Shown piece by piece: positions 24,274-57,755 of a DNA stretch of 63,470 nt. Under the pieces are notes generated by a model, which worked only from the letters and a program-made list of their open reading frames with translations, searched no databases and was not told the origin of the DNA. The position numbers and the translations under genes are program-made. The DNA is taken from positions 1 to 63,470 of the forward strand of contig UQOG01000003.1 of the NCBI GenBank assembly GCA_900542615.1. Reading direction: 5' to 3'. The stretch's first letter is position 1. The number at the start of each line of letters is the position of its first letter. The DNA comes from an uncultured Eubacteriales bacterium (GTDB lineage Bacteria; Bacillota; Clostridia; Christensenellales; CAG-138).

Positions 24274-25791
24274 TTATTGGCCAATGAGGGCCCGCATCTT
24301 TTGGTATAGGCCGTGATATTTGAGCATCGCTTCTTTGGAATAGGTGTGGCCAGCGTCCTCCTTCCCTATGGCCTTGGCCATGCCCGCCAGCTGCTTTTCC
24401 GTCAGATCTGCGGCGCCGCCTTGGGTATGGGCGGTATTCATTTTGTTGAACATGGCGGTAGCGCCCTGGGAGGTTCGGACAATGGCGCTGGAAGCCGCCG
24501 GCCCTAGCCCCGACTGATTGGCCATCTGCAAAGCGTTTTTGCCGAGGGTCGGGCTGGTTAAATACAAATTCAAGTTGTTGAGCAGGGTGTTGGTGAGCAA
24601 ATGATCGTCCGCAAAGAAGTCGTCGGCCCCCTGTCCCTGGGTGGCGCTGCGAAGCGCCTGGGCGTTGCCCAGAAGGTACCGCTGCACCTCCGGGTCATCC
24701 ATGAAGATCATCATTTCATCCATGGAGTCGTTGAGGAAGTCCGCTGCGCTCTGCTTACCGATGCGGCTTCTTTCCCGCTCCTCCCTGGTCATTTGGGACA
24801 TGGAACTGAACAGGTTTTTCTTGTCGTCGGAGTTGTAGCGGGCGCCGAGACGTTGGGTCATATTGGCTTGCAGGTTCTGCATGGCGCCGCCGCTGCGGAT
24901 CCGGTCTGAGCTGCTTACAAAGGCAGGATAGCGCGCATTGTTCCGGTTGTTCTCGATTAGGGCGTTGTTAAAGCGCTCCATTTGGGTAGCTCCCGTAGGC
25001 TGCGAGTTGGTGTATGCCGTCCGCATCTGGGTGGCCAGGTTTGCAAAATCCGCCGTCTCCTGGGGGGAGTTGGCGCCGGGGTTAAATTGATAATTCGGCG
25101 CGGCGACCGGCGTTTGCGGCGGGGAGGAAAACAGGTTTTTGATTCCGCCCCAGGCCGCCTTGGCCCCGCTGGCGATGCCCCGCCCAAGGGCTTTGGTGCC
25201 ATTCCAAGCCTTGGACGCCACGCTGGCCAGGCCCGCGCCCATGCCCAGGGCGCCCCGCTTGATAAGGCTGCCTGCCTTCTGGAGGAATTTCGGCATCATC
25301 TGCACCCCGCCCATGGGGGCGCTCACCGTGGACATGCCGCTTTCCACCGCCCCCTGCTGGGCCGTATGCACCAATTCGTGGGCGGCTACCGCAGGATCGA
25401 ACCCGCCCTCGCCAAAGTATACGTCACGGCCTGTGGCATAAGCCCGGGCGCCCATGCTCTCCGCCCTGCCCACAGCGTCTGCGCCCATATGGAAGCGCAC
25501 ATCCGAAAAGTCCGCCCCCATCTTTTCCCCCAGCTCCGCCTTCACCTCCGCCGGGGTACGGGCCGTGATCCCCGCCGCCACGGCGTCGGCCTCCGCCTCT
25601 GCCGCCGGATTCTGTAGGCTTTGGAACCGGGCCATCCGGGCCTGCATCTGGGCCTCCAGAGCATCCCCCAGCCCCGGCTGCTCCAGGCCGTAAGCCCCGC
25701 GCACCGCCTGGGTATTCGAAGCGGGTGCGTCCATGTTTTCGTAGCTGCCCGCCGGGATCTCCCGGGGCTTCTTCACCAATTGATACGCCAT
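24274..25791 (-). CDS. DUF4157 (eCIS-associated zincin-like) domain protein with uncharacterised ~350-aa C-terminal region; candidate CIS effector
   Basis: FSDVRFHMGADAVGRAESMGARAYATGRDVYFGEGGFDPAVAAHELVHTAQQ is the DUF4157 signature, including HExxH at about residues 138-142. AGGAGGA SD present. It is the last gene of the CIS operon. Confidence 0.85.
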   Translation of the reverse strand: MAYQLVKKPREIPAGSYENMDAPASNTQAVRGAYGLEQPGLGDALEAQMQARMARFQSLQNPAAEAEADAVAAGITARTPAEVKAELGEKMGADFSDVRFHMGADAVGRAESMGARAYATGRDVYFGEGGFDPAVAAHELVHTAQQGAVESGMSTVSAPMGGVQMMPKFLQKAGSLIKRGALGMGAGLASVASKAWNGTKALGRGIASGAKAAWGGIKNLFSSPPQTPVAAPNYQFNPGANSPQETADFANLATQMRTAYTNSQPTGATQMERFNNALIENNRNNARYPAFVSSSDRIRSGGAMQNLQANMTQRLGARYNSDDKKNLFSSMSQMTREERERSRIGKQSAADFLNDSMDEMMIFMDDPEVQRYLLGNAQALRSATQGQGADDFFADDHLLTNTLLNNLNLYLTSPTLGKNALQMANQSGLGPAASSAIVRTSQGATAMFNKMNTAHTQGGAADLTEKQLAGMAKAIGKEDAGHTYSKEAMLKYHGLYQKMRALIGQ

Positions 25792-25874
25792 ATTTTCCTC
25801 CTATGCCGCGGCATCCCCGCGTCTAACGTTGCTTGCGCCGGCGCAAATGCGCCCTGCTTCTTTCCTTCCATGAG

Positions 25875-57008: not shown

Positions 57009-57038
57009 GCTGTTTTTTTCGCCCAGCCCACAAAAGGG

Positions 57039-57755
57039 CTATATACCCTCCCGGACCTTTTGGAACATCCATTCGCAGAAGCACTGCTTCGCCTTGGCCC
57101 GCATGGTTGCGCTGATGGGCACATGGCAGCTGTCCTGCAGGATGAAATCGCCGGTGGTCATATTGGCGATATAGTTCATATTAACGATATAGCTACGATG
57201 GCAGCGAAGAAAATCCTTGGGCAGTTCCTGCTCCAATTCCACAAGGCTGCGGTTGGTGGTATAGGTACGGCCCGTGGTATGGAAAATGGCTTCCCGGCCA
57301 AACACCTCGATATATTGGATCTCCCCCAGCAGGACCTGGACCCGCTCCCGCTCGAATAGGATCTCGATGGCCTGGGCCATGGGGGAGATGTTTTCCAGGC
57401 ACCAGTCCACGGTCTCGTCCAGCTGGCCCTGGGTATAGGGCTTGAGCAGGTAGCCCGCCGCATAGACCCCATAGCTTTCCAGGGCGTGGTCCTCGCTGGT
57501 GGTGGTGAATACCAGCTGGCAGCCCGTATCCTTTTCCCGGATGGCCTTGGCAGCCTCCATGCCGGTGAGGGCGGGCATATAAATATCCAAAAATAGGATC
57601 TGATACTTCCCCGGAGCAAAGGCGTCTAGGAGGGCCCGGCCGTCGGCAAAGGGCTGGATCTCCGCCTGCACATGCCGGTCGGCGCAATACTGTTGCAGCA
57701 TGGAAACCAGCTCCCGCCGGTCGGCGGCGCTGTCATCGCATATGGCAAATCGCAT
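57039..57755 (-). CDS. LytTR-family response regulator (REC plus LytTR), copy 1
   Basis: The REC domain has FAICDDS, YQILFLDIYMPALTG and YLLKP. The LytTR domain has IQYIEVFGREAIFHT...FLRCHRSYIVNMNYI. Confidence 0.9.
   Translation of the reverse strand: MRFAICDDSAADRRELVSMLQQYCADRHVQAEIQPFADGRALLDAFAPGKYQILFLDIYMPALTGMEAAKAIREKDTGCQLVFTTTSEDHALESYGVYAAGYLLKPYTQGQLDETVDWCLENISPMAQAIEILFERERVQVLLGEIQYIEVFGREAIFHTTGRTYTTNRSLVELEQELPKDFLRCHRSYIVNMNYIANMTTGDFILQDSCHVPISATMRAKAKQCFCEWMFQKVREGI

Follow-up and report, generated by a model that had tools for sequence, protein, structure and literature searches.

The contractile injection systems (CISs) that stand nearest to the one described here, among those characterised so far, are all bound to the cell that produces them. 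The CIS of Halogeometricum borinquense (sheath structure PDB 9ezm) belongs to clade IIa and is a membrane-bound, contact-dependent 'archaeal T6SS' (type VI secretion system; Zachs et al. 2024, PMC11566945), and in the published tree the nearest Cis11 relatives of the haloarchaeal clade IIa systems are Bacillota (PMC11566945). In Streptomyces coelicolor, whose CIS is of clade IId, the membrane protein CisA is needed for firing (PMC12237407), and in the thylakoid-anchored CIS (tCIS) of Anabaena PCC 7120 the N-terminus of Cis13 binds the baseplate and a membrane anchor keeps the particle in the cell (PMC8894136). Anchoring in both Anabaena and Halogeometricum depends on baseplate-peripheral or dedicated membrane proteins (PMC8894136, PMC11566945). 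Firmicutes loci of the genomic extracellular CIS (eCIS) class are already present in published catalogues (Chen 2019; Geller 2021), and toxins from two catalogued loci, those of Ruminiclostridium cellulolyticum and Paenibacillus, killed E. coli expressing them; however, a literature search found no experimental characterisation of a CIS from Clostridia or Bacillota. In this paper, we describe a complete CIS locus in a stretch of 63,470 nucleotides (the window, at its full length) of DNA from an uncultured Eubacteriales bacterium, in which 30 co-directional, tightly packed and operon-like minus-strand genes occupy positions 24274-57755. Its sheath protein is 98% identical to that of a metagenome-assembled genome (MAG) of Candidatus Pelethousia gallinarum, a member of the Clostridia from chicken caecum, and the host is a Pelethousia-like gut Clostridia bacterium. 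The gene products were searched against Pfam, NCBIfam, PHROGs and the PDB, and by tblastn across related loci; selected proteins were modelled with AlphaFold2 (AF2) and compared by Foldseek. Sheath-centred loci were the best 80 of at least 554 species-representative genomes with a sheath relative (single related loci are cited by L numbers), and the sheath half of the locus was surveyed in genome contigs, its downstream half in metagenome contigs.

That this is a genuine CIS locus is practically beyond doubt. All genes given below by coordinates are on the minus strand unless otherwise stated. The sheath (Cis2, 51622..53373) matches Phage_sheath_1 (3e-23) and sheath_1C (2.7e-16), and among solved sheaths 9ezm of H. 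borinquense ranks first (3.2e-122), followed by 8bky (1.1e-105) and 8bl4 (1e-102) of the Streptomyces CIS, and, lower in the ranking, by Pvc2/Afp2 (1e-50 to 1e-56), 7adz of AlgoCIS and 7b5h of the Anabaena tCIS (the last two ~1e-47). The inner tube protein (Cis1, 51108..51587; Phage_T4_gp19, 3e-40), which is 85-91% identical across Oscillospiraceae loci, has two paralogues of the same Pfam family (49956..50435, 1.6e-26; 49505..49927, 1.7e-18). Between the first and second tube genes lie a tail-assembly-chaperone-like gene (50649..51008; phrog_508, 1.9e-6), the product of which ends in a Cys-rich zinc ribbon, and a gene for a small DUF6760 protein of 49 aa (50461..50610; PF20546, 9.7e-11), which an earlier preliminary description of this DNA had overlooked, and which has 83 tblastn matches in related loci and a homologue annotated in the H. 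borinquense cluster. Conservation within the family is highest for the chaperone-like protein, above sheath and tube, with identities of 64-100% across loci and 52% to the archaeal cluster; such high conservation of a CxxC zinc-ribbon protein across L001-L080 is unusual for an assembly chaperone. The gene at 47005..49476, which fills the slot flanked by the last tube gene and the tube initiator gene, is called tape-measure-like by position only: its A/Q/P-rich product has no profile match in Pfam, NCBIfam or PHROGs, and the role proposed for it earlier fits its position and its variable length, the slot measuring 0.85-6.2 kb (median 3.7 kb) in 48 otherwise syntenic related loci. Very different particle lengths are therefore to be expected within one family.

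The baseplate is equally well represented. The tube initiator (Cis7/Afp7-like, 46256..46981) matches CIS_tube (PF19266, 1.2e-34), while the LysM domain earlier ascribed to it appears only as a weak, sub-threshold C-terminal match (E 0.013-0.12). A gp27-like hub (45128..46228), the N-terminal half of a split VgrG/Cis8, matches AlgoCIS Cis8 (7aef_q, 8.5e-12), VgrG (9rce_F, 3.2e-11), a YQBQ-like protein (4.9e-7) and the tCIS hub (7b5h_AJ, 8.4e-5), and aligns with the N-terminal halves of Cis8/VgrG of AlgoCIS, the tCIS and the Streptomyces CIS; the second half is a separate gp5/gpV-like spike (44382..45131; Phage_base_V, 9.9e-20). These are followed by a gp25-like wedge protein (Cis9, 43957..44364; GPW_gp25, 4.7e-21), a large baseplate J-like protein (Cis11a, 41033..43960; TIGR02243, 1.3e-40; PDB 9gtp_1K, 2.2e-19), a second copy (Cis11b, 38945..41008; Baseplate_J, 9.2e-7), a gpI/Cis12-like protein (37806..38924; TIGR02242, 1.3e-14, above its cut-off; CIS12_fam, 3.6e-16, partial; phrog_1160) and the Cis13-like protein u589 (36050..37819; CIS13_fam, 1.7e-26, aa 9-152), which has no transmembrane (TM) helix and a C-terminus with weak Ig-like matches only. 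Further downstream are the tail terminator or cap (Cis16, DUF4255, 29223..29825; Pvc16_N, 1.1e-27), a PAAR-like spike tip (DUF4280, 28093..28470; 7.1e-26), a Cis15-like AAA+ ATPase with a winged-helix N-domain (WHD) and a single AAA module (25875..28091; AAA, 4e-31; WHD, 2.2e-22), and a DUF4157 protein (24274..25791).

The preliminary description had recognised a complete CIS operon of about 30 co-directional minus-strand open reading frames (ORFs) in a Clostridia-type genome, and the profile searches recovered nearly all of its part assignments, including the sheath, tube, baseplate, DUF4255 and AAA+ proteins. The intergenic gaps from the receiver gene that opens the packed operon (55899) to the AAA gene (25875) do not exceed 117 nt, and every overlap it had named can be read directly in the sequence, i.e. 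ATGA overlaps at 43957-60, 45128-31, 35269-72 and 29223-26 and a 14-nt overlap at 37806-19. Its part list and extent fell short: besides the missed DUF6760 gene, conserved associated genes run on from 24274 to ~18587 (see below).

The locus carries the features of the genomic eCIS class, namely a sheath with a gp19-type tube, a baseplate core and the cap, AAA+, PAAR-like and DUF4157 markers, with no phage module. Within that class, a split afp8 (gp27-like and gp5-like ORFs), two afp11 genes and afp10 (PAAR) form the pattern of clades IIa and IIc (Chen 2019). Here the hub (45128-46228) is apart from the spike (44382-45131), two baseplate-J genes are present and the tip is a DUF4280 protein; judged by this gene pattern, the locus is best assigned to clade IIa or IIc, its nearest solved relative being of clade IIa. 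The systems of Afp and PVC (clade Ia; PDB 6rao, 6j0b) share with it the sheath, tube, LysM initiator, spike, gp25, baseplate J, PAAR, AAA+ ATPase (Afp15/Pvc15), cap (Afp16/Pvc16) and cargo at the 3' end, but in these the sheath comes as three paralogues, VgrG is fused, Afp11 is single, the fibres are Afp13 and the hosts are Gram-negative; their sheath similarity is limited to the C-terminal part, and no comparable membrane or signalling module accompanies them. Because of the IIa/IIc gene pattern, and because the nearest solved sheaths come from cell-bound systems, the labels 'Afp/PVC-like' and 'extracellular' that had first been given to the locus do not describe it best. Its presumed novelty was likewise overstated, since Firmicutes CIS loci had been catalogued, two of their toxins tested and Bacillota named as the nearest relatives of the archaeal system; what stands of that premise is that no experimentally characterised Bacillota CIS was found in the literature.

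The likeness to the Halogeometricum CIS extends over most of the particle. Shared are the sheath (40% identity by tblastn), the tubes, the chaperone (52%), DUF6760, gp25 (44%), the LysM/CIS_tube initiator (34%), the split gp27-like hub and gpV spike, DUF4157 proteins and two Cis11 genes (Cis11a of the window is 25% identical over its full length to the archaeal Cis11a, and Cis11b also matches); in addition, the N-terminus of u589 matches HBOR_RS17690 and the C-terminal half of the ATPase is 42% identical. The archaeal record annotates a PAAR protein and a DUF4255 cap as well, but neither was recovered by tblastn from the window. The two systems differ in the placement of the cap and AAA genes, in the host envelope, which in the archaeon is an S-layer only, and in their toxins, which in Halogeometricum form toxin-immunity pairs, whereas the toxin in the window has no immunity ORF after it. 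No window protein gave a tblastn match to the archaeal multi-TM anchor candidates, which lie upstream of the cluster, in 55 kb of pHBOR03 around it, where the RefSeq tag of the conserved putative anchor Hbor_38620 was not established. With the S. coelicolor CIS (PMC12237407), our locus shares a Gram-positive host, the second-best sheath match and the Cis11 match 9gtp_1K; clade IId, however, has one contiguous VgrG, one Cis11 and no tail-fibre genes, in contrast to the split VgrG, two Cis11 and Cis13 found here. The Anabaena tCIS (PMC8894136; PDB 7b5h) shares the Cis11/Cis12/Cis13 periphery and the hub match, but its sheath is much less similar (4.5e-47) and its anchor consists of a TM helix in Cis13 with Cis12/Cis19 extensions, whereas u589 has no TM helix and the membrane proteins of our locus are separate. 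As to canonical T6SSs (subtypes i-iii), no Pfam or NCBIfam family of TssJLM, TssA or ClpV type was found in any window product, in agreement with the preliminary description, which had seen no TssJLM/ClpV-type genes; the ATPase is of the WHD plus single-AAA Cis15 type and is not ClpV-like.

The locus is a complete resident CIS and not a prophage. A defective myovirus prophage tail region or an R-type tailocin would account for the phage-tail ancestry of the sheath, tube, baseplate and chaperone genes, and tyrosine recombinase genes do lie 13-23 kb to the left; nevertheless, we regard this explanation as very improbable. Pfam scans of the principal ORFs across the 63-kb window detected no capsid, portal, terminase or replication module, and the window yielded no holin, endolysin or spanin family, as had been noted by inspection for capsid, portal, terminase, holin and endolysin genes; in particular, the 24 kb to the left and the 6 kb to the right of the locus contain no head or lysis module, which would have made this an ordinary tail region. 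On the other hand, DUF4255, the WHD-AAA ATPase, DUF4280 and DUF4157, the genes that had been taken to set CISs apart from prophage tails and tailocins, were all recovered by profiles. In a search of 50,697 phage records, none matched the sheath over as much as 80% of its length (the best has 37% identity over 74%), and the AAA ATPase finds generic AAA matches only. Also against a phage origin of this kind, gene order is kept across many Clostridia families at sheath identities of 57-98%, and the guanine-plus-cytosine (GC) content of the locus (62.6%; window, 61.1%) is like that of its flanks. The right flank is chromosomal, with SfsA, Fe-hydrogenase and NrdD/NrdG, and the left flank holds transporters, a TetR regulator and, further off, the recombinases. 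No tRNA or repeat boundaries of a mobile element were found around the locus. The four tyrosine-recombinase (Phage_integrase) genes, at 443-1714, 2119-3030, 9147-10226 and 10305-11150, flank a plus-strand ABC transporter operon (4790-7991), and GC falls to 52-53% at 1-2000 and 10001-12000; this region may be a separate mobile element, at least 13 kb to the left of the CIS-associated genes.

What distinguishes the locus from the systems described so far is a Bacillota-specific accessory module of four conserved genes, u263, u838, u142 and MORN836, which lies between the Cis13-like gene and the cap, i.e. at the position where Afp/PVC encode their fibres and Streptomyces encodes CisA. The genes follow one another at spacings of -4, 2 and 53 nt, with translational coupling to their neighbours. 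Conservation of all four extends to 11 loci in which the AAA protein is only 54-58% identical to ours, u838-like and MORN-like genes are found in Brevibacillus loci as well, and tblastn detected no counterpart of any of the four in the archaeal cluster, nor of u366, u143, u250, the PP2C protein or the MFS protein described below.

The first module protein, u263 (35269..36060), is predicted to have a Hanks-type kinase fold (AF2 pLDDT 88.7, pTM 0.82). In the Foldseek search PknB, PknA and Stk1 came top (E 5e-7, prob 1.0, TM ~0.5), all 50 matches listed are protein kinases, and 1013 chains matched at E <= 1e-3. The Hanks-type catalytic motifs considered were the Gly-rich loop, the beta3 Lys, the HRD Asp and the DFG Asp; the family has an invariant N55 at the beta3 Lys site and no HRD Asp or DFG, these positions having been located via predicted secondary structure rather than by superposition. 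In a profile search of 1.84 billion representatives, only 159 relatives reached E <= 1e-3, none of them an ordinary kinase. We read u263 as a putative pseudokinase scaffold; an active PpkA-like kinase was rejected, the catalytic motifs being missing. The next gene, u838 (32783..35272), is ATGA-coupled to u263 and encodes a protein with four hydrophobic segments, taken as TM helices, a HAMP-like linker (E 8.5e-4, below cut-off) and a C-terminus related to class III cyclases (2w01, 4e-7; 6fht, 3e-6; CyaB, 3.9e-3). This cyclase-homology domain is degenerate, because the first metal-binding Asp is replaced (by Val in the window protein, counted back from the HMMER alignment) and the second Asp and the Asn/Arg, which the window protein does have, lack conservation in 20 homologues. 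The reading of u838 as an active adenylate cyclase that produces a second messenger was rejected, the catalytic residues not being conserved in the family. Two nucleotides further on, u142 (32403..32780) encodes a small basic protein with a C-terminal TM anchor (aa 120-138 of a 142-aa ORF), 30-42% identical in divergent loci. The last member, MORN836 (29839..32349; Pfam MORN, 2.4e-8), is a membrane protein of the single-pass type, consisting, in order, of an Arg/Lys-rich N-terminus of 81 aa, a TM segment at 82-100, MORN repeats (aa 133-365, matching 6t6q at 9.8e-13), a globular domain, a Ser/Ala/Gly-rich linker and a helical C-terminus; its identity is 39-43% in divergent loci and 32% in Brevibacillus. 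From the charge distribution we infer that MORN836 is probably oriented N-in/C-out, as CisA is. The likeness to CisA, which is encoded after the baseplate genes in the tail-fibre position with the N-terminus in, one TM helix and the C-terminus out, is one of position and inferred topology; the C-terminal domain of CisA resembles a substrate-binding protein, where MORN836 has MORN repeats instead, and no pseudokinase or HAMP/pseudo-cyclase partner has been described for the Streptomyces CIS.

On this basis we favour, at a probability of roughly 0.55, a mode of action in which the CIS docks at the cytoplasmic membrane, is gated by signals and fires from inside the producer cell, and would thus not be primarily a free extracellular syringe. 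Docking is suggested by the fact that the nearest characterised relatives are all cell-bound, that conserved, translationally coupled membrane proteins occupy the fibre position, that the window contains no release genes, and that the Cis13-like protein is conserved like the core, being 56-60% identical over its full length in loci where the AAA protein is 54-58% identical, unlike a receptor-binding fibre. The preliminary description had called this last protein fibre-like; it is Cis13-like at its N-terminus and is not hypervariable. The same genes bear on the alternative that this is a classical eCIS, assembled in the cytoplasm and released by lysis of a subpopulation, with the Cis13-like protein binding target cells, DUF4157-linked toxins being injected, and the membrane and signalling genes regulating only expression or release. 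Such a system would carry exactly the genomic signature seen here (cap, AAA+, PAAR-like tip, DUF4157 and tape measure), and DUF4157-toxin fusions at the 3' end are a hallmark of catalogued eCISs, two of which, from Firmicutes, supplied the toxins that killed E. coli; u589 ends in an Ig-like domain, and there is no ClpV-type recycling ATPase. This signature does not discriminate, however, because cell-bound systems share it, and against the alternative stand a window without holin, endolysin or other lysis gene, the lack of a hypervariable fibre, the cell-bound habit of all the nearest characterised relatives and the four conserved genes, three of them for membrane proteins, that occupy the fibre position in translational coupling with the structural genes. 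We consider a classical eCIS to be possible, and a serious competitor, but not the probable case.

The direction of firing is a further question, on which the cargo bears. The DUF4157 protein (24274..25791; eCIS_core, 8.6e-18) has an intact HExxH motif, read as HELVH, and an orphan C-terminal domain; the protein has no PDB sequence match, and the C-terminal domain matches no Pfam toxin family and has one homologue in 5.8 billion proteins. In same-species contigs from the human gut, in which flanking genes show 95-98% identity, the N-terminal 221 aa are ~80% identical but the C-terminal 280 aa are replaced; the C-terminus of the window protein is retained at 97% in another contig. In a related locus of a Clostridiales MAG (L014, ORF ~909-3115) DUF4157 is fused to Ntox11 (1.4e-27). 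The other DUF4157 proteins of the family (435-986 aa) have C-terminal regions without a Pfam match, which may hold undescribed toxin domains. No immunity-sized ORF follows the DUF4157 gene, the gap to the next gene being 159 nt. By its sequence, the DUF4157 protein is a candidate polymorphic cargo or toxin carrier, and the exchange of its C-terminus between strains, together with the Ntox11 relative, favours an external target. Within the membrane-docked reading, we therefore place outward, contact-dependent (T6SS-like) delivery somewhat above self-directed firing of the Streptomyces CisA type, because of this toxin polymorphism.

The latter sub-case, a cytoplasmic CIS fired under stress into the membrane of its own cell, leading to regulated cell death or to development such as sporulation, would suit a monoderm host with a peptidoglycan wall, as in Streptomyces, the strong sheath matches to 8bky and 8bl4, the CisA-like position and inferred topology of MORN836, the stress-type PP2C/partner-switching genes attached to the locus and the absence of an immunity gene beside the toxin. 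Yet replacement of the DUF4157 C-terminus at strain level and the Ntox11 relative point to an arms race with an external target, and the gene pattern is that of IIa/IIc (split VgrG, two Cis11, Cis13) rather than IId, so that we hold Streptomyces-type firing to be unlikely.

The signal gating that we propose draws on genes outside the structural block. Because equivalents of three further genes follow the AAA gene in related loci, we extend the locus to ~18587. The outermost encodes a HAMP-PP2C (SpoIIE-type) membrane phosphatase fused to an RsbW-like HATPase_c_2 domain (18587..20578; SpoIIE, 3.1e-34; HAMP, 1.3e-4; HATPase_c_2, 1e-4); one or two HAMP-PP2C homologues come after the AAA gene in ~20 divergent loci, and in L124 the genes from AAA to DUF4157 encode a HAMP-PP2C protein, an RsbW-like HATPase_c_2 protein, a STAS protein, an LPG_synthase_C/GNAT-like protein, a MatE-HATPase_c_2 fusion and a second PP2C. 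No STAS partner for the PP2C-HATPase protein was found among the three small downstream ORFs in the window. Next to it, a weakly GNAT-like protein (20606..21205; Acetyltransf_7, 8.6e-4, below cut-off) has the LPG_synthase_C/GNAT protein of L124 in the analogous place and is possibly associated with the CIS locus. The third, MFS961 (21229..24114; MFS_1, 2.3e-27), is an MFS transporter fused to extracytoplasmic regions with weak SGL (beta-propeller-like) and dCache matches; homologues of 47-51% identity stand directly after the AAA gene in L089 and L122, and the gene is probably associated with the locus. Large transporter fusions recur beside these CIS loci, MFS961 here and the MatE-HATPase_c_2 fusion in L124 (15967-17730), and more distant loci have other MFS-like proteins of ~800 aa (L126, 79-2640 and 3662-6070).

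Post-translational control of secretion machines has parallels elsewhere: in the H1-T6SS of Pseudomonas the threonine-phosphorylation pathway of PpkA, PppA and Fha1 acts in this way, and type III secretion of Bordetella is controlled by partner switching through BtrU, BtrW and BtrV. The likeness to our locus is that a kinase-fold protein and a PP2C, joined in relatives by RsbW-like and STAS proteins, are encoded together with an injection apparatus; it differs in that the kinase-fold protein lacks catalytic motifs and that neither an FHA protein nor, in the window, a STAS gene was found, and its link to firing is a putative one. Since they are conserved beside the locus, these signalling genes count for signal-gated docking. 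A literature search for a CIS linked to PP2C, a pseudokinase or MORN returned nothing relevant. The pseudokinase/HAMP-pseudo-cyclase/tail-anchored/MORN module and the attached PP2C/partner-switching genes, of which no description was found in the literature, are what is new in this locus, the core belonging to a known superfamily and a catalogued clade.

In the assembly proposed from these parts, the tube made of the Cis1 paralogues would polymerise on a baseplate of split VgrG, DUF4280 tip, gp25, two Cis11, Cis12 and Cis13, to a length set by the tape-measure protein and with the help of the chaperone and DUF6760; the sheath would wrap the tube and the DUF4255 cap close the particle, all within the cytoplasm, while the AAA+ ATPase would aid assembly and the loading of the DUF4157-tagged polymorphic toxin. 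If the membrane-docked reading is right, the particle would then dock at the membrane via the four module proteins, namely the pseudokinase, the HAMP/pseudo-cyclase protein with its 4 TM segments, the tail-anchored protein and the MORN protein with its single pass. Signals from the envelope or from contact, passed on by the HAMP protein and the PP2C/partner-switching module, would gate firing or assembly, and REC/LytTR regulators would set transcription.

Several points weigh against this proposal. Gene content and its conservation are what has been observed here; the mode itself is a proposal drawn from these and from analogy. No homology links the membrane proteins to a proven CIS anchor, and their role could be purely regulatory. 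A particle fired from inside has a peptidoglycan wall to cross, and the locus yielded no wall hydrolase; with an ATPase of Cis15-like and not ClpV-like type, there is no sign of sheath recycling; and no immunity gene occupies the 159 nt after the toxin gene. Moreover, released eCISs just as typically have DUF4157 cargo, the AAA+ ATPase and the cap, the genome could carry lysis genes outside the window, and u589 could bind a target through its Ig-like C-terminus. The wall itself deserves a qualification, as the 'thick-walled' host of the preliminary description is an assumption and many Oscillospiraceae relatives stain Gram-negative or variable. The fullest form of the hypothesis is that the Bacillota clade IIa family is a 'Gram-positive type VI-like' system, held at the membrane by the lineage-specific MORN, HAMP-pseudo-cyclase, tail-anchored and pseudokinase proteins, with contact- or envelope- and PP2C-gated firing through the wall that would deliver strain-variable DUF4157 toxins into neighbours; taken as a whole, it is tentative and rather doubtful.

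The remaining genes of the locus are regulators and small conserved proteins. At its upstream end lie two LytTR response regulators, the first with a canonical REC domain (57039..57755; LytTR, 2.6e-18; Response_reg, 1.1e-14) and a nearby promoter-like site (11/12, at 57915-57886), the second at 56086..56793 (LytTR, 6.2e-21; Response_reg, 3.7e-12); LytTR regulators are found upstream in 27 of the 80 related loci. The stand-alone receiver (REC, 55531..55899; Response_reg, 1.9e-8) is the first gene of the packed operon, 3 nt from the next gene, with a promoter-like site (11/12) at 56057-56028, and in many related loci it directly precedes u366. The acidic-pocket residues of the REC-only protein and of the second LytTR regulator appear, by eye, to be altered (SQD for DD). 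The 63-kb window contains no histidine kinase, Rfam gave no riboswitch or other known RNA match at gathering thresholds, and a terminator scan did not rise above the shuffled background. The conserved helical protein u366 (54427..55527), always just upstream of the sheath, has tblastn matches in 58 of the 80 loci and 107 homologues, all unnamed; its predicted helical fold (AF2 pLDDT 72.6) had no structural match (E >= 0.1, TM < 0.25), and there was no PDB sequence match. The small protein u143 (53460..53891), found in 52 of the 80 loci and weakly YbjN-like (Pfam YbjN, E 0.0084, below cut-off), is possibly a chaperone. In other loci u143 directly follows u366; here u145 (53872..54309) sits between them, a lineage-specific ORF and uncertain gene without a family match, conserved only in the near-identical locus L001, which is either a recent insertion or not a gene. 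Between cap and PAAR genes, u250 (28474..29226) encodes a conserved protein with weak phrog_1082 and Big_1 matches only; its identity in divergent loci is 33-41%, and in Brevibacillus-type loci, too, it comes after the cap.

The synteny survey of related genomes, as the preliminary description had suggested, showed that the block around the sheath is conserved, in the order (REC)-u366-u143-sheath-tube-chaperone-DUF6760-tube-tube, then the variable tape measure, then initiator-hub-spike-gp25-Cis11a. In distant relatives (within L054-L080, L118, L126-L127) the AAA gene is upstream of the sheath, as against the far 3' end in the subgroup of the window; in Brevibacillus-type and a few other loci the cap is upstream of the sheath too, and in L118, L126 and L127 so is the PAAR gene. 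As the positions of AAA, cap and PAAR differ, the operon has been rearranged within the family, with u366 and u143 kept beside the sheath/AAA block. The best 80 sheath relatives are almost all from gut or rumen Clostridia, followed by Brevibacillus and a few others, and include Pseudoflavonifractor, Flavonifractor, Oscillibacter, Intestinimonas, Butyricicoccus, Faecalibacterium, Anaerotruncus colihominis DSM 17241, rumen Lachnospiraceae and Christensenellales, their source habitats being mostly human, chicken, rabbit, mouse and rumen; the downstream half of the locus occurs in human-gut metagenome contigs at 91-99% identity. Published surveys found CISs to be depleted from mammalian and avian microbiomes (PMC8213781) and those of the human gut to be predominantly from Bacteroidota (PMC12210884). 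The gut and rumen Clostridia matches do not fit this picture, and the surveys may have under-sampled the Clostridia of the MAG era.

Our locus is less surprising than first proposed, and it bears on a question that the Bacillota loci raise, namely how a CIS works behind a monoderm wall. It provides a parts list and a testable hypothesis, in which the four fibre-position genes, three of them for membrane proteins, and the phosphatase/partner-switching module are candidates for anchoring and triggering. Because the family has cultured carriers (A. colihominis DSM 17241, Pseudoflavonifractor capillosus, Flavonifractor spp., rumen Lachnospiraceae and Brevibacillus), this question is open to experiment. 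The family abounds in gut and rumen genomes, contrary to the statements of depletion and of Bacteroidota dominance; its part in the interactions of gut communities may have been overlooked, and it may be a source of new polymorphic toxin domains. If the hypothesis is true, a 'Gram-positive type VI-like' system would be widespread in the gut Clostridia of humans, birds and ruminants, where CISs have been thought to be essentially restricted to Bacteroidota.

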